DNA of 64,000 bases from Mosigvirus mar005p1 (OZ035759.1); one strand, 5' to 3'; counted from the first letter of the stretch, positions 54,607-63,152 are shown. The notes: generated from the letters alone by a model not told the origin. Numbers and translations are program-made.

Positions 54607-54936
54607 TTATACTCTAGGCTTTTGAGCTTGTTTGGTATTGGATTCCCATGCGGCTTTGGTAATTTTGTTAGCGGCATAACCAAAGGCATTAGATAGAACA
54701 CCTTTAGAGTTGAATACATCCAATCCAATAAGTACACCGGCTGTGTTAAATTTAGGAGCAAAGTACGCATTAGTTTTAGAAAGAGCTTTTTTCAATTCAG
54801 GGTCTTGAACCAAGCCATCAAAAACGCCTTTACTATTTACTTTATATGTTACTTTGGGATTTTTACCTTCTTCGATAGCAGCTTTCTGTTCCGCAGATAA
54901 TGTAACTTCAGTGATAAACTCCTGATATGTTTTCAT
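54607..54936 (-). CDS. internal protein (capsid-targeted, CTS leader MKTYQEFITE)
   Basis: 109 aa; N-terminal MKTYQEF leader typical of T4 IPI/IPII/IPIII. Confidence 0.7.
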   Translation of the reverse strand: MKTYQEFITEVTLSAEQKAAIEEGKNPKVTYKVNSKGVFDGLVQDPELKKALSKTNAYFAPKFNTAGVLIGLDVFNSKGVLSNAFGYAANKITKAAWESNTKQAQKPRV

Positions 54937-54961
54937 TTTGTTCCTATTGATTTAATTTATG

Positions 54962-55276
54962 TTATTCTTTAGGGAAGTTTTTAGAGTATGCATCATAAAG
55001 TTTATTACCAATACGGCGGAAGACTTTAGCTGCAAAACGGTTTTCAGGGTTTTTAATCATAATTTGCATCATGTAAGTTCCTGCATCCGAAAGAGCTTCT
55101 TCATAGTACCCATTAATTTCTTTAAGAGTCCTACGTTTACCACCAGGACCATCAACAGTAATTTTCCATTTACCTGTAGAAGTGCGGCTCGGTGGCTCAA
55201 CTTGTTCAATCCAAATATAACCACCTTCAACGCGTTGGTTGGCGGATTCTGCAATAAATTCTTTATACGTTTTCAT
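54962..55276 (-). CDS. internal protein (CTS leader MKTYKEFIAE)
   Basis: 104 aa; same leader family. Confidence 0.7.
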   Translation of the reverse strand: MKTYKEFIAESANQRVEGGYIWIEQVEPPSRTSTGKWKITVDGPGGKRRTLKEINGYYEEALSDAGTYMMQIMIKNPENRFAAKVFRRIGNKLYDAYSKNFPKE

Positions 55277-55340
55277 TTTTTGTTTCCTTGTTTGTTTTGA
55301 TAGAGTAATTATACCATATTAATACTTAAGCGTAAACAAT

Positions 55341-55601
55341 TTAAGCTTTACCGCCAGAAATAATTCCGAAGTTGTTAAAATCATATCCAATATCGTCAAC
55401 ATCTACTTTAGGGCTTGCTACAACATAAGCAATTTCACTACGTTTTGCATAGGTGTTGATTTCTTTACCATCGCCACCTAAGAAAGAATACCCATTACGT
55501 TTTAATGAGCCAAAGTCTTCGGCATCACCAACGAAAGCTTTAACTTTAAATTTAGGACCTTTGGCAACTGCTTCAGCGATAAATTCTTGATACATTTTCA
55601 T
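55341..55601 (-). CDS. internal protein (CTS leader MKMYQEFIAE)
   Basis: Track ORF 55341..55667 trimmed to MKMYQEFIAEA. Confidence 0.6.
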   Translation of the reverse strand: MKMYQEFIAEAVAKGPKFKVKAFVGDAEDFGSLKRNGYSFLGGDGKEINTYAKRSEIAYVVASPKVDVDDIGYDFNNFGIISGGKA

Positions 55602-55608
55602 TTTTTCC

Positions 55609-56022
55609 TTAGTAAATTGATTTACCATAGTATTTGTACCAAGTCGGACGTTGAGCAATTTTTTCATCTAAGCGTGCTTGACTTATCGCAATAGACGCTT
55701 CAGACGGGACATAATTATTACGAAATTCGACAGGGATGTCGGAAATATCCTGGACTGACGTGTCCTTGATTTTGAAACCACGTTTCAAACATTCAGCGAT
55801 TAGCTCGATTTGTCGTAAACGTAAAAATTCGAGTTTGTCGTAAAAGAATGTTACGTGACCTGTGCCTAAGATAAATGTTGGAGAGATTTTAAAATCCTTT
55901 ACACGTTTACCGTTTTGAACATGTTTACGGACTGCACCAAATACGCGTGGTAATTCACGATACTCAGCCATAAGATGTTGGTCGGTCAGTTCAGAAACAA
56001 GTGTTAAATTGATACGAGTCAT
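55609..56022 (-). CDS. denV: Endonuclease V (pyrimidine-dimer DNA glycosylase DenV)
   Basis: Trimmed to [12 protein letters not shown]...; near-identical to T4 endo V as recalled. Confidence 0.92.
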
Positions 56023-56080: not shown

Positions 56081-56362
56081 CTATTTTTCTGAAGCGCCTG
56101 AAATATATTTTTCAAGACGTTGTTTCATCAGCGAGCCGTTCTTAGCGATTTCTTCCGGTTTATCGCACATACGTAACAAGGCTTCAAGCTTAGCGATATC
56201 GCTGGTACGTTCAAATTTGCGAGTATCTATCTTACTAGCAAGTTCAGAAATACGTGCTAGTAGACTTTCGGCTTCAACCAAAGCTGCACCTAGCTTAGTT
56301 GCAAATGTGTCAGTAGCTTCGTTAAGAATAGATTCTGATAAAAATTCACTATATGTTTTCAT
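56081..56362 (-). CDS. internal protein (CTS leader [10 protein letters not shown])
   Basis: Track ORF 56081..56377 trimmed to MKTYSEF. Confidence 0.6.
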
Positions 56363-56847
56363 ATATACGCTTTCCAAGTTCCTGTTTTAAATGTTGAGAT
56401 TACGCGTTTCGCGCGATTAGGTGTCTGACGATACCATTTAGATTGGGCGAGATTTACTGCCGCTTCATCCCAACGTTTCTGTTGAAGCATACGAAGAGAA
56501 TTAGTAAAACCGGCGACGCCTGATACACCCATTTGGAAGACCATATTGACCAATGCACATCGACGAACCGCATCTAAAGAATCATATACCGGTTTAAGTT
56601 TAGCATTACCCAAGATTCCGCGAACGGCTTTATCAACGTCTTCATTAAATAGCTTTTCAGCCTCATCAAGGGTAATTGTACCGTTGCATTTACGACCGAT
56701 CATTCTGTCAAGTTCAGCTTTAGCTACGGCTAAAGACGGGTTCTTTGTTACTAAATGGCCTATGCCAATCGTCCAAAAGCCTTCAGTGTCTTTGTATAAA
56801 GTCAGTCTAAGACCTTCGTCATTACGAAGCATTTCAAATATATTCAT
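56359..56847 (-). CDS. e: Endolysin (T4 lysozyme e)
   Basis: Trimmed to MNIFEMLR...; catalytic E11/D20/T26 context DEGLRL..YKDTEG..TIGIGH; colinear with T4 lysozyme. Confidence 0.93.
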
Positions 56848-56881
56848 AATACCTCCCACGTTTATAGGAGGTATTTATTAC

Positions 56882-57340
56882 TTATAGGAGGGTAGTGAGC
56901 ACCTTATATAATGATTTACCCATTACATATTCCCATTGAGAAGGTTTAATTAAAGCGAATGCATCAAATTCAGGAATCTGTCGTCCGTCTGGGAATGTAT
57001 GATAGGAATTACAAACACTGTTTCTGAATTGCTCGTGCTCTACAGGGATGGTATATAGGAACAGATGAATATTCTTATTATCTGAGTAATGATGTTCACC
57101 TAGGTCTTTCAGGAAGGCAGGGTCATATTGTGTAAACCCAGTTTCTTCTTCGCATTCACGAATAGCGGCTTCAATAGGAGATTCACCGGGCTCGACACGT
57201 CCTTTAGGAATATCCCACCGATGAGCTAAAGAACCTTTAGGACGAGAACCAGTTACACGCCCCATGAATAATTCTTTATCTTCGGTAAGGAAAATAATAC
57301 CGGCTGATAGTTCTTTCACTTTATTTTTCTTACTCATCAT
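56882..57340 (-). CDS. nudE: Nudix hydrolase NudE-like
   Basis: 152 aa; Nudix box GRVEPGESPIEAAIRECEEETG. Confidence 0.8.
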   Translation of the reverse strand: MMSKKNKVKELSAGIIFLTEDKELFMGRVTGSRPKGSLAHRWDIPKGRVEPGESPIEAAIRECEEETGFTQYDPAFLKDLGEHHYSDNKNIHLFLYTIPVEHEQFRNSVCNSYHTFPDGRQIPEFDAFALIKPSQWEYVMGKSLYKVLTTLL

Positions 57341-57581
57341 CTCGGCCCCATGATTTGGCCATTAATTCGGACATAAATTCTTCAATGCGCGTTTCTTTAG
57401 ATGGACTTTCACTATTAGAGACCGCAAGTTTGTAATCTGCAATAGGACAGAACATATCAAGGTCCATATTAAGATCGTCTTTGATTTTTTCTTCTGACAC
57501 ATCTTTATCGTATGTGTACAGATAACTATCACATGATTCTGATTTAATGTAAATTGCTATACTCATCTCAAATTCCTGCAT
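57330..57581 (-). CDS. hypothetical acidic protein
   Basis: 83-aa ORF. Confidence 0.5.
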   Translation of the reverse strand: MQEFEMSIAIYIKSESCDSYLYTYDKDVSEEKIKDDLNMDLDMFCPIADYKLAVSNSESPSKETRIEEFMSELMAKSWGRDDE

Positions 57582-58054
57582 TCGGTAATAAAACGTTCAA
57601 CTTCATTATTCTTGGCTTTTATCTTGTCTTTATGTTCTTGTAAACTACTTTTAACAAGATTAATAATGATGCCTACAGTACCTCCACCAATAATACCACC
57701 AACAACACTTATGATAATAGATGCTAATAAGATAGCAATAATATCAACAAAACCGAAAGAACTCACCTTAGTACTGAAAAACCATACCGACGGTACAAAT
57801 ATAATCCATCCTGTTATCCATTGGCACTTATTGAAAAACTTTTCAAGCTCAGCTTGAGTTGTTCGTATTACTTCATCGATAGGTTGATATCCATTAATGT
57901 ATCTGTTCACAATAATACCTGCTGGCTGGTCGATTTTAAATTCTTGGCAAATATGTTTCACTAAGTAGGATGGACATCCTGTCCAATCCACTGAATAGTA
58001 CGAAATACCTTCATTGCCGTCGTCTATATTAGACCAATATGTTTTGTTAATCAT
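57563..58054 (-). CDS. membrane protein, xFIxECR C-terminal-motif family
   Basis: 163 aa; TM helices; C-terminus ...ERFITECRNLR. Confidence 0.55.
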   Translation of the reverse strand: MINKTYWSNIDDGNEGISYYSVDWTGCPSYLVKHICQEFKIDQPAGIIVNRYINGYQPIDEVIRTTQAELEKFFNKCQWITGWIIFVPSVWFFSTKVSSFGFVDIIAILLASIIISVVGGIIGGGTVGIIINLVKSSLQEHKDKIKAKNNEVERFITECRNLR

Positions 58055-58740
58055 TACCAGCCTTCCATAGGGAATTCCAGATAAACTTGGGCATTGACAC
58101 GAATTTCATTGGTAATCTTTTTAACTCGGTCTGTATTACGAGATACACGTCCGAACCAACGCCATCCGTTACTAATTGCACGAGAACCAGTGTGCCATGT
58201 TTGCCAATCAAACTGAAGAAGAGTACGATCTGGAGCTTCCCATTTCTCTAGTTCACCTTTTTCAATTTTTTCGAGGACTTCTTTGTGCCACTGGCGATAG
58301 ATAAGTTCGCCATCAGGAATCTGACTGAACTCTGCAGTTCCTGTTGCAAAATGAGTAGGACACACGTCAGCGTTAACAAGACCAAGAATATGTTCAGAAT
58401 GGTAACGAGGGTTGTCATAGTCAGGTTGTCCTGCAGTAATAAAGTGTTGACCAACTGGAATATCAGGGCGTGGAACATCGTCATGGTGATATCCAGGAAT
58501 AGCAGGGTACCAGCCAGGCATCAGCATGTGGACTCGTGAATCAAATACTACATCCGAGTCTTTCCAATCGTCAGGAAGATTTTGGATAAAGCTACGAGTA
58601 ATTGGGCCGCCATTATCAAAAGCAAAATTCAAATCGCAGTTAAAGAACATAGGCTCGTTTTTAATCTGGTCGTTTTTAATCGCATGAGCAAAACCACCTA
58701 CTGCACGAGCTTGACTATTAAACACTTTAGAACTATTCAT
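58054..58740 (-). CDS. hypothetical protein (His/Asp-rich, possible metal-dependent enzyme)
   Basis: 228-aa ORF; no confident family assignment. Confidence 0.5.
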   Translation of the reverse strand: MNSSKVFNSQARAVGGFAHAIKNDQIKNEPMFFNCDLNFAFDNGGPITRSFIQNLPDDWKDSDVVFDSRVHMLMPGWYPAIPGYHHDDVPRPDIPVGQHFITAGQPDYDNPRYHSEHILGLVNADVCPTHFATGTAEFSQIPDGELIYRQWHKEVLEKIEKGELEKWEAPDRTLLQFDWQTWHTGSRAISNGWRWFGRVSRNTDRVKKITNEIRVNAQVYLEFPMEGW

Positions 58741-58741
58741 A

Positions 58742-59047
58742 TTATTTTCCTCGGCATTCTTTAATGAAATTTTCTAGATTGGTAGATTCAATAGCTTTTT
58801 TACGAGCTTCTGCGTGTTCTTCTTCGGACAATTTACGTTTATAATTGACCCAGACATTATGGTCGAAACCAGACGTGGCATATAATAACAAAGCTCCAAC
58901 GAATAGCAAAAATGGTGATAAAAATATACAACCAGGAACACCATCCATACTGTAAGCCTTTTGTAATACTGCAACAGAAAGAGTTGCGTAAAAAGGTGAT
59001 GCAAGTATTGTTAAAAGACCAATTCGATTGGTTTCTGTTAATTTCAT
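58742..59047 (-). CDS. membrane protein, xFIxECR C-terminal-motif family
   Basis: 101 aa; C-terminus ...ENFIKECRGK. Confidence 0.55.
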   Translation of the reverse strand: MKLTETNRIGLLTILASPFYATLSVAVLQKAYSMDGVPGCIFLSPFLLFVGALLLYATSGFDHNVWVNYKRKLSEEEHAEARKKAIESTNLENFIKECRGK

Positions 59048-59075
59048 AATATTCTCCTCATGTTTTAATAGGACT

Positions 59076-59105
59076 ACTATAACATAGTCCTATAATTGTG
59101 TAAAC
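59076..59105 (-). promoter_or_regulatory. T4-type early promoter
   Basis: Minus strand GTTTACA-~18 nt-TATAGT within GGACTACTATAACATAGTCC cassette. Confidence 0.5.
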
Positions 59106-59117
59106 AGTTTTGTGAAG

Positions 59118-60074
59118 TTATTTGAAAGGTTTTACCATATGGAAATTTTGTTTGAAACGTTTGACGTAATCATTTTTGCCGAGCTTATGATACATAGCCA
59201 CTACTTCATAATAGTTCTCGTATGCGTACTCACGGAACCAACCAGAGGTGATGCTTGTGCAGACTTTTTCTAATGCCATCATGAAACTGGCTTCAGGGTT
59301 AATTTTAAAGTCATTAGGAATCTGAGAACGTTCTAACGCTAGTACACATGATTCTTCGTATACGCCGGCCAATTTGACCATTTCTGGTAATGATTCGAAC
59401 TTCTCGCGTGAGGTCATGACTTCAGAACCATCTTTCATATAAAATGTATACGCTGGACGGTCTGTTAGTGCAATGGCTTCATGAATAGTATCATGGTCAT
59501 ATGTATAGATGTCATCTTTAAAGAACGCACTTTTAGAAGTGTCAAGAACTGGGTGAGCATAATTCAAGGTTTCTTTCTGGCGTTTCAGCATAATTTCAGT
59601 AAGTTCATCGTTCAGTGTAACACCTTTACCACGAAGATACTGAATATGGTTCATAGTCTTTAAAAAGAATGGATTATTTTTCTTGAAACGATGAGACATC
59701 TTAATTGCAAGACATATCTCGGGAGTTGCCCAGTAAAACCCGTTCAAACGGTCTTTAGTCAAATTTTTCTTGGCATATTTTAAAAGGTCATAAGAAGACG
59801 TGAAATCTTCAGGAGTGAGTTCACCAACTAATTCACGGACATTAGTGATTGCCGGAACAATATATGCTTCAAAATGAGTTTCGCGTCCATTATGGAAGCA
59901 TTTGAAAACTTGGACATCAGGGTTATCTTGGTGAACATATACACCCATCATTTGATTTTTGAATGCATTCCAAGAACATTGGTCCGCAATAAAGTCCCAA
60001 TCACTATTTTTGATAGCGCTAGAATCAATAAGACCGTGATAGTGAAGTGCACGAGAACCAATAACTAACAACAT
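59118..60074 (-). CDS. hypothetical protein
   Basis: 318-aa ORF. Confidence 0.55.
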   Translation of the reverse strand: MLLVIGSRALHYHGLIDSSAIKNSDWDFIADQCSWNAFKNQMMGVYVHQDNPDVQVFKCFHNGRETHFEAYIVPAITNVRELVGELTPEDFTSSYDLLKYAKKNLTKDRLNGFYWATPEICLAIKMSHRFKKNNPFFLKTMNHIQYLRGKGVTLNDELTEIMLKRQKETLNYAHPVLDTSKSAFFKDDIYTYDHDTIHEAIALTDRPAYTFYMKDGSEVMTSREKFESLPEMVKLAGVYEESCVLALERSQIPNDFKINPEASFMMALEKVCTSITSGWFREYAYENYYEVVAMYHKLGKNDYVKRFKQNFHMVKPFK

Positions 60075-60102
60075 AATATTTTCCTCGGATTAATTCATTA
60101 AC

Positions 60103-60354
60103 TTAAATTTCACGACATGCGATATTATATTCATCCCAGAGGTCATCATGTGAAGCCTCTACCAATGGAACGATTGTACCGTTTATGTCTTCATTATAAG
60201 GGCAAATTGTACAGTGCGCATCTTCGAATCGGATGCCTTTGTGTTCAGATTTTTTATAACGCATATCGAATATCTTTGCAAACTTTTCACGAGTAATGGT
60301 TTTACCAACCACTTTGGTTCCGATACTTTCGTAATAAATCATTGTGGACTCCAT
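60103..60354 (-). CDS. hypothetical protein
   Basis: 83-aa ORF. Confidence 0.5.
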   Translation of the reverse strand: MESTMIYYESIGTKVVGKTITREKFAKIFDMRYKKSEHKGIRFEDAHCTICPYNEDINGTIVPLVEASHDDLWDEYNIACREI

Positions 60355-60370
60355 TTGTTTTGATAGGACT

Positions 60371-60400
60371 ACTATAACATAGCCCTATCTTGTTGTAAAC
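60371..60400 (-). promoter_or_regulatory. T4-type early promoter
   Basis: Minus strand GTTTACA-~18 nt-TATAGT. Confidence 0.5.
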
Positions 60401-60404
60401 TGTT

Positions 60405-60602
60405 TTAGCAAGAATAACTAGATGATACCCAGCCTTGAACAGTGATACTATTGTGGGATAATGAGATCGCGTCCTGGAGATTCAGACCTGCGTTATCTTC
60501 AATCCATAATGTAACTTCTTCGCGTTCTTCTGTTGCAATTTGGAACAGGTTTTCCAGAGCAGCTACTGCCGTACGTACAGCACAATCTAATTCACGAGAC
60601 AT
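60405..60602 (-). CDS. small protein, WV(S/A)SSxxC C-terminal family (member 1)
   Basis: 65 aa; C-terminus QGWVSSSYSC. Confidence 0.5.
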   Translation of the reverse strand: MSRELDCAVRTAVAALENLFQIATEEREEVTLWIEDNAGLNLQDAISLSHNSITVQGWVSSSYSC

Positions 60603-60611
60603 ATTGTTTCC

Positions 60612-60884
60612 TTAGCAAGTGTGAGAAGATGCGACCCAACCACCAGTTTCGAGGCTCAGGTTGTAGTCGTATTGGTAAACGTCGGCCCATTCAGCATAGC
60701 CGTTTTTTGTACAACGTTCAAGATCGGCTTTAAGATGTCCGGGTGAATGATAGGTTCCACCCATACCATAAGCTGGATACAAGTCGAATGTTGTGTTTTG
60801 TTTATCAGCAATTTCTTTGGCAGCCTCAATAGCAGCATAGATTTTTGCTACAGCTTCAGCCAGTTCGGTTTGTTCTTTAGACAT
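60612..60884 (-). CDS. small protein, WV(S/A)SSxxC C-terminal family (member 2)
   Basis: 90 aa; C-terminus GGWVASSHTC. Confidence 0.5.
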   Translation of the reverse strand: MSKEQTELAEAVAKIYAAIEAAKEIADKQNTTFDLYPAYGMGGTYHSPGHLKADLERCTKNGYAEWADVYQYDYNLSLETGGWVASSHTC

Positions 60885-60893
60885 AATGATTCC

Positions 60894-61199
60894 TTAGCAC
60901 AACGCAGAAGACGAAACCCAAGCACCTTCAGTAATAACGTAACCATTACCTTCACGCTTAACATCGCCACCATTATTTTCAATTTCATCTTTCATCCACT
61001 GGGATACGATTTCACCCTTAGGATAATAAGTACGACCGCTACCATAATCACCTACAGAAAACGATACTGCATATTGGTCTGCGATCTTTGTTGCTTCTTC
61101 TTCGATACGTTCAGCTTGATTCAGAAGTTTATAAATTGCATCTGAAGCAGATTTGGCATCATTAAACTCTGGTACTTTAATTTCAATAATCTTACTCAT
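60894..61199 (-). CDS. small protein, WV(S/A)SSxxC C-terminal family (member 3)
   Basis: 101 aa; C-terminus GAWVSSSALC. Confidence 0.5.
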   Translation of the reverse strand: MSKIIEIKVPEFNDAKSASDAIYKLLNQAERIEEEATKIADQYAVSFSVGDYGSGRTYYPKGEIVSQWMKDEIENNGGDVKREGNGYVITEGAWVSSSALC

Positions 61200-61555
61200 T
61201 TTCTACATTCCTTAATAAAGTTTTCGATTGTTTCATTTTCACGTCTAGCTAGGAGTTCATTATAACTAATCATTTGAGAAGCGTAAACCTTTTTATTTTT
61301 CTTGTTATGGTTTATAAAATCATAGTAAAAATAGACTACAGTACAAAATGATGCGATGGATGCAAAGGCTTGGGTATACCGTAAGTCCTGCCATTGGTCT
61401 GTGAATCCGCCGGTATTCCCTATAAATCCTAACACAACTCCGTCAATAAGAAATCCAACTAATCCAAAGGCAAATCCCATGCCAATACCCATAATAAAAA
61501 TTAGAATGTTCTCACCAAGAGAAGGCCATACGGTTAAGAGTTGAGGCTTTTGCAT
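61196..61555 (-). CDS. membrane protein, xFIxECR C-terminal-motif family
   Basis: 119 aa; C-terminus ...ENFIKECRK. Confidence 0.55.
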   Translation of the reverse strand: MQKPQLLTVWPSLGENILIFIMGIGMGFAFGLVGFLIDGVVLGFIGNTGGFTDQWQDLRYTQAFASIASFCTVVYFYYDFINHNKKNKKVYASQMISYNELLARRENETIENFIKECRK

Positions 61556-61959
61556 CTTATTTCCTTAACGAATTCCATAGCTTCTTCATATTCATACTTT
61601 TTAACAGCTTCATCATACTGAGCTTGGGCTTTTGCGCACTGAACTTTCCATTCTCTTAATCGGGCTCTGTGATGACGGCCTTGGTGCCAATATCCCACCC
61701 AATTAATAGGCATTAATAAAAACGGTACAATAAGTGGTGCGACGAACATTAATGAAAATGCTGCATCAGACGATATAACTTTATTGGAATCTAAAACAGC
61801 TCCTATAATCATAAAGATTAAAAATGCTAAAGCTAAAATAGGGCCAAATAGTACTTCGTTTGGGATTAATTTACGTTTGTATTCGTATGCCCAGGGCTTA
61901 ATTGGCATGTACAGGGTTGGCTTTGACATATTCTCTACATTCCATAATAAATTGCTCAA
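61534..61959 (-). CDS. membrane protein, related C-terminal motif (EFVKEIRCK)
   Basis: 141-aa ORF with TM helices. Confidence 0.5.
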   Translation of the reverse strand: MSNLLWNVENMSKPTLYMPIKPWAYEYKRKLIPNEVLFGPILALAFLIFMIIGAVLDSNKVISSDAAFSLMFVAPLIVPFLLMPINWVGYWHQGRHHRARLREWKVQCAKAQAQYDEAVKKYEYEEAMEFVKEIRCKSLNS

Positions 61960-62515
61960 GGATTAAATTGTTAGTGAAATTAGGACTAACAACCATAGTT
62001 TCATAAAGCGCATCAATAGCACTTAAAGCATCAACTCTTTTAAGCAAAGGCTTGCCTTCATACATAGTTTCAGAATCGACGATTAAAGTGAAGTAGTATT
62101 TTTTATTATTGACCAGAACTTCTGTATCAATATAAAACATGTTAGACCTTAAAAGCTTGTCTCTAAAACCATAATAATCTTTAGAGCGTTCGCTGATATA
62201 TTCCCATTCAGTGTTTAAACAACAAACAGACCATGTAGGAGCAACGAAATCGGTGAATCTAATATCATGGTCTGCAACTAGTTTAGCAATAGCTCCGATA
62301 TCATGAATCATAATACCTGGGGCTAATAAAGATTTTCGGTTATTTGCATATTCAGTTGTCTCATAAGAAGACGACCAGTACCATTTACGTCCAGTTGCAA
62401 CATATCGTAATGAATCAACTAAAGACGTAGGTGGATTTACCTTATCTCGGAACTCTTCGAACATTGAGTCAATATCATTATTTTGGTTTCGCATGTTAAC
62501 TCCTTTATTATCCAA
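61898..62515 (-). CDS. hypothetical protein with C-terminal QFIMECR motif
   Basis: 205-aa ORF. Confidence 0.5.
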   Translation of the reverse strand: MDNKGVNMRNQNNDIDSMFEEFRDKVNPPTSLVDSLRYVATGRKWYWSSSYETTEYANNRKSLLAPGIMIHDIGAIAKLVADHDIRFTDFVAPTWSVCCLNTEWEYISERSKDYYGFRDKLLRSNMFYIDTEVLVNNKKYYFTLIVDSETMYEGKPLLKRVDALSAIDALYETMVVSPNFTNNLILEQFIMECREYVKANPVHAN

Positions 62516-62526
62516 AAGGAGGACCG
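62500..62526 (-). terminator. Rho-independent terminator
   Basis: Minus strand GGAGGAC-UCCG-GUCCUCC followed by UUUUGG. Confidence 0.6.
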
Positions 62527-62543
62527 GAGTCCTCCGTATTATT

Positions 62544-63152
62544 TTATTTCAAAGAGTTAATATATTCTTGTACATCAGCAGAAGTGGTTTCGACACCGGC
62601 TGGAGTGCCATTGAACGTTTCAACACGAGTTAGAGTGTCTTCGATATCAACCTTAGTCAGTGCAGCGATTTCAATTACATCATCGGCCGTAGAGATACCA
62701 AGGGCATTGGCTGCTCGAGTTTCACGAATGTATTCAAGTTTGATTGCCAGGTTCTGACGAGCATCATCAAGTTCAACCACCTTACGAGCAATTTCAATTC
62801 GCATAGCGGCATACCCGTCAGCTTTTGTATTAAGTTGTTCGGCAGTTCGACGATACAGAAGACCAAGCTTAGCATGCATAGTAACATCTTGTCCTTCGGC
62901 CAGGAGCTTACGAATTTCACGTTCCTTAGAAGCGGCTTGCTTGTTCTTTTCATTAACAAGTTCGCGAATACGTTTTTCTTCATTAATAGATTTAACAGAA
63001 GCCGTTTTTAGTTCTTTGATTTGGGTAATCAACTTATCTGCAGCTGCGTTATACTGTTCTTCGACAGTCAGATTTTTAGCCATAGCAGTACCCAGTTTAG
63101 TGCGGATGAATTCAACAAGTTTCTTCAGTGTGTTCATATTATTACCTTTCAA
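62544..63152 (-). CDS. coiled-coil protein (PspA/IM30-like?)
   Basis: 202 aa, predominantly helical heptad-rich sequence; family assignment tentative. Confidence 0.45.

Follow-up and report, generated by a model that had tools for sequence, protein, structure and literature searches.

Tail-bearing genes upstream of nudE and the lysozyme gene

The DNA stretch analysed here (the window) comprises 64,000 nucleotides (nt) of Mosigvirus mar005p1 (OZ035759.1), a phage of the T4 family and of the RB69-like (Mosigvirus) type. At positions 57300-62700, where identity to Escherichia phage APCEc01 and its relatives is 96-97%, it contains a cluster of genes upstream of nudE (56882-57340), the lysozyme gene e (56359-56859) and denV; all cluster genes and all features of the window given below lie on the minus strand. 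Five open reading frames (ORFs) of this cluster, called E, D, C, B and A in their order along that strand, encode proteins that end in variants of one short peptide, which we refer to as the tail, and we refer to the proteins as carriers. A first-pass annotation of the sequence had described these ORFs as a family of membrane proteins sharing a C-terminal xFIxECR motif on otherwise divergent bodies, and had proposed that the motif serves a shared interaction partner or a sorting signal. Translation confirmed that the five minus-strand ORFs exist and end as described.

Counterparts of the ORFs were assigned by tblastn, PHROG profiles and synteny with T4. ORF E (61898..62494; 198 amino acids (aa) from its ATG; phrog_2607) is the counterpart of T4 e.5, with 45% identity in the body, and is a soluble carrier with the tail core LEQFIMECR (Phe to Arg codons at 61934-61951). 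ORF D (61534..61929; 131 aa from its ATG; phrog_2604), the e.4 counterpart, is a carrier with two transmembrane (TM) segments and the tail EFVKEIR(C), an e.4-type sequence without the Cys of the motif (61555-61572). ORF C (61196..61555; 119 aa; phrog_2330), a membrane carrier 36-39% identical to T4-type e.3, ends in IENFIKECRK directly before the stop codon (61202-61219). ORF B (58742..59047; 101 aa; phrog_9798) is a two-TM carrier of the RB69-like lineage only, ending in LENFIKECRGK-stop (58751-58768). ORF A (57563..58054; 163 aa; phrog_2203, 'membrane protein') is the counterpart of T4-type e.2 and consists of an N-terminal soluble domain, a TM hairpin and the tail VERFITECRNLR-stop (57575-57592). 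ORFs E, D and C overlap mutually, and Pfam had no family for any carrier. The TTG starts initially chosen for D (61959) and E (62515) probably over-extend these two genuine ORFs; since the PHROG profiles matched from position 1, the true starts are probably the ATG codons at 61929 (MSKPTL…) and 62494 (MRNQNN…). The description of most of the five as having N-terminal TM segments also held in part: hydrophobic TM-like segments occur in every ORF but E, and those of A lie in its C-terminal half.

The likeness among the five proteins is limited to their last 13-28 residues. Six-frame translation of the window gave four matches to the pattern F[IV]xEC[RK], compared to a mean of 0.05 and a maximum of one in 200 shuffled sequences, and each match lay 1-11 residues from the stop codon of a real ORF. 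The four matches bear out the shared motif for four of the endings; EFVKEIRC of ORF D, which had been counted with them, is a different string and belongs to a Cys-replaced class described below.

The tail is a conserved C-terminal element of T4-like phages

We compared 45 loci, made up of 41 viral contigs anchored on NudE together with T4, Bp7, Entb_45 and the window; anchoring on e.6, the gene that heads the cluster, recovered the same viral contigs. Matches to F[IVL]xxC[RK] numbered 127 in 43,460 C-terminal residues (the last 20 of each ORF), compared to 11 in 209,265 interior residues, and antisense control ORFs gave 3 tail matches in 905. The conserved core [LFI]-[EDN]-x-F-[IV]-x-x-C-[RK] was enriched ~46-fold at C-termini. 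With a position-specific scoring matrix, 144 of 32,595 tail positions scored ≥10, compared to 19 of 198,400 interior positions. In the family-weighted profile, numbered from the Phe at 0 (100%), position –3 is L, F or I in 79%, –2 is E, D or N in 71%, +1 is I in 88% or V, +2 and +3 are variable, +4 is C, and +5 is R in 86% or K; both flanks of the core are rich in Lys and Arg. The Glu before the Cys, which had been taken as part of the motif, is conserved only in T4/RB69-type phages: position +3 is Glu in 28% of families and otherwise D, Y, M, N or other residues.

All 41 T4-like loci had carriers, between one and five per locus and usually about four, whereas none of four outgroup loci did. 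The motif is kept in homologues from many T4-like genera, and so withstood the refuting condition set in the first-pass annotation. Lineages with the tail include Tequatrovirus, Mosigvirus, Dhakavirus (Bp7), Kanagawavirus (Entb_45), Winklervirus-like, Klebsiella PWKp16-like and Marfavirus-like phages, Serratia phage Muldoon and Erwinia phage Cronus; in Bp7 and Entb_45, soluble proteins are again among the carriers. The family of ORF B is restricted to the window and the contigs L004 and L005. Among the 1,415 frames of ≥40 codons in the complete T4 genome, the tail was found only on e.5 (EKFVKECREY…), e.4 (KFVKESRC…), e.3 (EFVIDCRKIK) and e.2 (NFITECRKLK); two other motif matches were antisense to genes 38 and 2. 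A tail hidden Markov model (HMM) recovered a second recurrent class from the same clusters in which I, V, M or S stands in place of the Cys, with endings such as …FIKNVRRK, …EFVMEMRK, …DFIKGIRS and …EFIKEVRNGTA. EFVKEIRC of ORF D and FVKESRC of T4 e.4 belong to this class.

We also observed that e.2 is split in T4 (L001 6360-6847, T4T e.2a/e.2b; T4 reference 67652-67960). The annotated e.2 has 102 aa, and the part with the TM segments and the tail is a separate short ORF. In the T2/T6-type relatives L016, L017 and L019, e.2 is intact, with 162 aa and the ending NFITECRKLK.

The core is followed by 0-13 residues, mostly basic or polar (K, R, N, E). These residues bear on the idea that the tail is a turnover tag, that is, a C-terminal degron for a host AAA+ protease such as FtsH, Lon or ClpXP that would time the removal of early proteins. 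A C-terminal, cytoplasmic, exposed peptide that is portable across unrelated proteins would suit a degron, as would carriers that are early-region genes with early-promoter-like sites. The motif does not, however, stand at the extreme C-terminus, and the variable residues after it do not form the non-polar end of ssrA-type tags or ClpX C-motif degrons; nor is the tail known to resemble the ssrA-type or MuA-type motifs recognised by ClpX, and strict conservation of a Cys and of an acidic residue at –2 would be unusual for a degron. We therefore consider turnover tagging improbable.

The tail is attached to unrelated membrane and soluble proteins

With the tails removed, the 155 carrier ORFs fell into 31 BLAST families, about 20 of which have TM segments and about 10 of which do not. 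Comparison of the tail-less bodies by hhalign linked 2 of 465 family pairs at ≥90% probability (F20-F21 and F22-F23), with further links at 68-74% for F0-F22, F5-F13 and F1-F6. Mean identity between families was 0.17 for the bodies and 0.42 for the nine-residue tail core. When 1.8 billion representative proteins were searched exhaustively with an HMM of the e.5 family, that family alone was recovered. The bodies are therefore divergent, as had been proposed from the window, and we rejected hidden homology of all carriers because BLAST and hhalign linked very few families once the tails were removed.

The 71 two-TM carriers (17 families) have a short loop of 10 residues between the TM segments. 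Their mean content of Lys plus Arg was 2.65 in the N-terminal flank, 0.46 in the loop and 2.41 in the C-terminal flank, so by the positive-inside rule both termini are in the cytoplasm (N-in/C-in), and with them the tail, in agreement with the first-pass annotation. A median of 44 residues follows the second TM segment, and the distance from the last TM segment to the tail ranges over 24-59 residues. Soluble carriers (95-290 aa) lack any hydrophobic segment. Because about 10 carrier families, roughly one third and including that of ORF E, are soluble, the tail is not a membrane-protein feature, and the description of the group as a membrane-protein family had to be given up. Judged from the residue pattern, positions –3, 0, +1 and +4 would form a 100-degree arc of a helix, next to the acidic (–2) and basic (+5) positions. 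The tail is, in sum, a short amphipathic helix of ~10 residues at the cytoplasmic C-terminus of ~30 otherwise unrelated bodies.

A tail of this kind need not have a common partner. It could be an intrinsic structural or oligomerisation element, such as a homo-oligomerising helix or a Cys-bridged metal site, that survives as the slowest-evolving remnant of an ancient tandem duplication. The carriers are tandem neighbours, typically about four per genome, many of the membrane carriers share the same hairpin-plus-tail plan, the Cys is almost invariant, and hhalign links some families, mostly weakly, by their tail-less bodies. On the other hand, the tail also occurs on both soluble and two-TM proteins whose bodies have no detectable similarity, and the e.4 class exchanges the Cys for I, V or M. 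Nor should an intrinsic element lie at varying distances from the last TM segment, or at the extreme end of unrelated folds. We regard this explanation as unlikely.

Selection acts on the peptide rather than on the ribosome-binding site

Since the tails run into the translation start regions of the genes that follow, we examined whether the motif is a by-product of translation-initiation signals, with an AU-rich stretch, a Shine-Dalgarno site and an ATG being read in the upstream frame, or else a DNA recombination linker. The overlap is real in many cases, as the motif often lies 1-10 nt upstream of the next ATG. At the D/C junction (61552-61575) it is literal: the K-E codons of D (AAGGAA) are the Shine-Dalgarno site of C, and its R-C codons (AGATGC) contain the ATG of C. 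We observed in addition that an ordinary tail, AAGGAATG, would leave zero spacing between Shine-Dalgarno site and ATG at this junction, and that two extra codons of the e.4 class yield a workable 5-nt spacer.

Codon usage was analysed over 88 distinct combinations of family and DNA sequence. The Phe of the motif was encoded by TTT in 61 and TTC in 27, the Cys by TGT and TGC in 44 each, and the Arg by all six of its codons, drawn from both the CGN and the AGR codon families. Third positions had an entropy of 0.9-1.9 bits, which is near saturation, whereas the first and second positions of the Phe and Cys codons were invariant. AGR codons made up 51% of Arg codons at the motif, compared to 20% in the background; this excess fits a secondary Shine-Dalgarno overlay. 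Measured from the Arg codon, the best downstream start was 1-84 nt away, with the motif 38-84 nt from any start in families 3, 11 and 24; the spacing to the ORF's own stop codon varied less (0-39 nt).

Because third positions are free and Arg uses six codons, selection acts on the amino-acid sequence and the C-terminal position, not on the RNA. Since the spacing to the next start varies, overlap with ribosome-binding sites does not account for the motif, and the proximity of tails to starts follows from tight gene packing. The position of the Shine-Dalgarno site also varies, inside the motif or after it, and the tails within a genome are homogenised neither at the DNA nor at the peptide level. 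Thus an origin as an initiation by-product or recombination linker is already largely refuted and very improbable, and initiation signals stay as a secondary overlay on a constrained peptide. In compact phage genomes, codon-position analysis of this kind can separate junction peptide motifs from ribosome-binding-site overlap.

Selection on the peptide, at an ORF end immediately before the next start, is also what a regulatory nascent peptide would show, in which the tail would pause translation from within the ribosome exit tunnel and so tune the next gene. SecM, MifM and VemP likewise have a conserved C-terminal peptide on TM-containing ORFs immediately before the start of the next gene, and the N-terminal or central TM segments of many carriers recall such monitors of membrane insertion. 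A paused ribosome would, however, cover starts 1-10 nt downstream rather than expose them. Unlike in these systems, the spacing is variable (1-84 nt), some tails have no coupled downstream gene, about 10 of the 31 families have no TM segment, and the carriers are full-size proteins, the soluble third having 95-290 aa, not leader ORFs; several consecutive genes all have the tail. Regulation by a nascent tail appears highly unlikely to us.

The head of the cluster encodes a probable PspA/Vipp1-like protein

The gene at the head of the cluster, the counterpart of T4 e.6 (62544..63137; 197 aa), is represented by homologues in 1,109 phage records. When a profile built from 13 diverse e.6 homologues was searched against PDB sequences, the top matches were Vipp1/IM30 (E = 0.003-0.09, collinear over residues 6-147). 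An AlphaFold2 (AF2) model built from 31 sequences had an overall predicted local distance difference test (pLDDT) score of 76.5, with a helix at 2-22 and a hairpin of residues 25-80 and 86-145 at pLDDT 85-96. In this predicted model e.6 has the layout of the superfamily, an N-terminal amphipathic helix followed by the long alpha1-alpha2/3 hairpin. In the Foldseek ranking, Vipp1/IM30 structures filled places 1-8, 10 and 11 (probability 0.99-1.00, best E = 5e-4), CdvB2, an archaeal ESCRT-III protein, came ninth, and PspA took places 28 and 47. On the strength of the sequence profile, the modelled hairpin and the Foldseek ranking, e.6 appears to be a previously unrecognised member of the PspA/Vipp1/ESCRT-III superfamily, and this assignment is a new lead. 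Pfam gave no PspA_IM30 match for e.6, and an hhalign comparison with a single PspA sequence was uninformative.

The e.6 gene is closely linked to the carriers. A homologue is present in 39 of 41 T4-like loci, directly upstream of the first carrier, the soluble e.5-type, and in T4-like loci the two-TM carriers lie on the same strand, 0.6-5 kb downstream. In Aeromonas phage Aes012 (Tulanevirus; L086 5998-7496), e.6 is directly followed by a soluble protein of 290 aa that ends in IEMFVDYCRRTAPKRE; this pair lies in another neighbourhood (nrdD, nrdH, gp55) that lacks membrane carriers. The tail is restricted to the early-gene cluster headed by e.6. We considered whether the C-terminus of e.6 itself (…EYINSLK) is a copy of the tail, and rejected this as the resemblance was weak and inconsistent (ranks 24-984 of 1,708).

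Public labels of genes in these clusters are inconsistent, and some isolated ones, automated or guessed, had no support in our profile searches. These are 'host specificity protein' for e.6 in GenBank, where the gene is elsewhere 'hypothetical'; 'sulfurtransferase' for an e.4-like gene of Shigella phage JK36 (L047 1148-1522); and 'putative holin or antiholin' for carriers of Serratia phage Muldoon.

Other features of the cluster

Promoter-like sites of the T4 early type, with the form TTTACA-17-TATAAT/TATAGT in the window, lie in intergenic positions upstream of e.6 (63207-63179), of an 83-aa ORF (60399-60371) and of ORF B (59104-59076). The gap between e.6 and ORF E holds a GC-rich stem-loop with a run of T after it (62518..62535), which is terminator-like or attenuator-like. 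Cassettes of a promoter and a stem-loop have been reported where genes meet in the plastic parts of T4-type genomes, and the arrangement in the window resembles these.

Two further genes that are absent from T4 lie among the carriers, both well conserved. One (58054-58740) encodes a protein of 228 aa (phrog_1843) with homologues in 27 of the 45 loci, and the other (59118-60074) a DUF7277/DUF7275 protein of 318 aa. Between the e.3-like and e.2-like genes, three small soluble ORFs in tandem (60405-60602, 60612-60884 and 60894-61199; phrog_4882 and phrog_899) end in W-V-[S/A]-S-S-x-x-C-stop (GWVSSSYSC, GWVASSHTC and GAWVSSSALC) and form a second family with a C-terminal Cys motif. Entb_45 and Bp7 have four to five tandem copies of this family (…WISSSEMC, …WQPSSC, …FWYSSSMSRC).

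Discussion

Searches of the accessible literature found neither the motif strings nor a function for e.2-e.6, and T4 e.2-e.6 are listed as of unknown function in a 2025 genome-wide knockdown study. For these reasons we regard the tail as undescribed, in keeping with the first-pass annotation, whose author was aware of no described function for the motif. The tail itself varies a known theme, in which phage accessory proteins share short tags for targeting or docking.

The closest example in T4 is the capsid targeting sequence (CTS) of the internal proteins (MKTYQEFIAE), which is N-terminal, is cut by the gp21 prohead protease after I/L-x-E and sends soluble proteins into the prohead. Both elements are tags of ~10 residues on unrelated, rapidly shuffled accessory proteins of T4-like phages. 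Internal-protein genes of the window (~54900-55670), a few kb from the carriers, start with MK[TM]Y[QK]EFI[AT]E and so share 'EFIxE' with the tails of RB69 and T4. Unlike the CTS, the tail is C-terminal, with 0-13 residues between it and the end of every carrier, and is also found on integral membrane proteins; its Glu, and with it the gp21 consensus, is not conserved across genera, and its conserved Cys and Arg are absent from the CTS. We rejected a relationship because of the wrong terminus and the non-conserved Glu, and believe the shared 'EFIxE' to be a coincidence.

We infer that a shared interaction partner or sorting signal is still the best reading of the tail. In its specific form, to which we give a probability of roughly 45%, the tail is a portable helix through which the carriers dock onto, or assemble with, one shared partner in the cytoplasm, the candidate being e.6, and has a role in inner-membrane integrity. 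The tail would gather the cluster products at the inner membrane, on a single cytoplasmic site that binds them all. There the hydrophobic stripe (–3, 0, +1 and +4) would slot into a groove, with specificity coming from the conserved acidic residue at –2 and the basic residue at +5. The most economical candidate for the partner would be the putative coat formed by e.6 from the cluster head. Two-TM carriers may then serve as membrane anchors or nucleators, in the manner of LiaI for LiaH or of PspB/C for PspA, and soluble carriers may be cargo or regulators. The likely role of such a system would be to control inner-membrane integrity during infection, in lysis timing or in resistance to membrane-damaging abortive-infection systems.

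In both LiaI-LiaH of B. subtilis and PspB/PspC-PspA of E. coli, small inner-membrane proteins recruit or regulate a coat protein at the membrane. The T4-like clusters resemble these systems in having small inner-membrane proteins with cytoplasmic segments beside a gene of the PspA/Vipp1 family, a likeness that rests on gene order and topology. They differ in having several carriers per genome, some of them soluble, with one shared short C-terminal motif, and in that e.6 is also found without carriers. Docking of MIT-interacting motifs (MIM) to microtubule-interacting and transport (MIT) domains in the ESCRT-III system likewise uses a short terminal amphipathic helix as a portable motif, and the C-terminus of e.6 has a similar shape, a weak resemblance. 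In ESCRT-III, though, the motif is on the coat subunit and binds MIT-domain proteins, while in the phages it is on the neighbouring proteins.

Several observations weigh against a docking helix for e.6. Cronobacter phage leB (Pseudotevenvirus) has an e.6 that is 35% identical and is followed by no tail-bearing gene, and contig L004 has two carriers with e.6 not within reach. The AF2 model of ORF E speaks for the docking reading in that it places the motif within a terminal helix (residues 177-192), but the model is of low to moderate confidence (pLDDT 61), and Foldseek comparison of this model with the PDB gave no match below E = 0.16. Tail similarity at variable positions was 0.178 within genomes and 0.152 between lineages, which is not a significant difference (p = 0.054); there is therefore no signal of lineage-specific co-adaptation, and we rejected both co-adaptation and gene conversion of tails within a genome. 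The near-invariant Cys hints at metal binding or redox chemistry beyond simple docking; in the e.4 class this position tolerates I, V or M. Knockdown of T4 e.2-e.6 under laboratory conditions caused no fitness defect in the 2025 genome-wide study. The identity of the partner, e.6 included, is an unproven guess.

The location of the cluster just upstream of nudE and e raises the alternative that it is a lysis module, in which two-TM carriers would be class-II-holin-like or antiholin-like proteins beside the endolysin gene e and the tail would be their regulatory cytoplasmic domain. Membrane carriers match class II holins in size, in their two TM segments with N-in/C-in topology and in their charged cytoplasmic C-terminal domain. 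The label given to carriers by the annotators of phage Muldoon agrees with such a role, and a neighbour resembling PspA would be in keeping with control over membrane energisation. Unlike class II holins, however, the carriers are several and paralogous, the promoter-like sites are of the early type only, and the same tail is found on soluble proteins. T4 already has a known holin (t) and known antiholins (rI, rIII), encoded elsewhere; the pair of e.6 and carrier in Aes012 does not lie beside a lysozyme gene; and the knockdowns lacked a fitness defect. We believe that a lysis module has only a small chance of being correct.

If the tail is a docking helix for e.6, T4-type phages may have their own PspA/Vipp1/ESCRT-III-like coat together with tail-marked adaptors that recruit, nucleate or regulate it at the host inner membrane. 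This phage-borne membrane maintenance would keep the infected cell energised, which would be useful, for example, in lysis inhibition or against membrane-puncturing abortive-infection effectors. We consider this wider picture doubtful at present.

T4 is the best-studied lytic phage, yet e.2-e.6 are still listed without a function. The tail unites ~30 orphan families, across Tevenvirinae and at least one T4-like genus of Aeromonas phages, in a single functional group, and a 10-residue peptide with three near-invariant residues offers a handle for pull-downs, localisation and mutagenesis. The PspA/Vipp1/ESCRT-III-like protein at the cluster head suggests that these phages may manipulate inner-membrane integrity with a coat system of their own, which would matter for the timing of lysis and for resistance to defence systems that target membranes.

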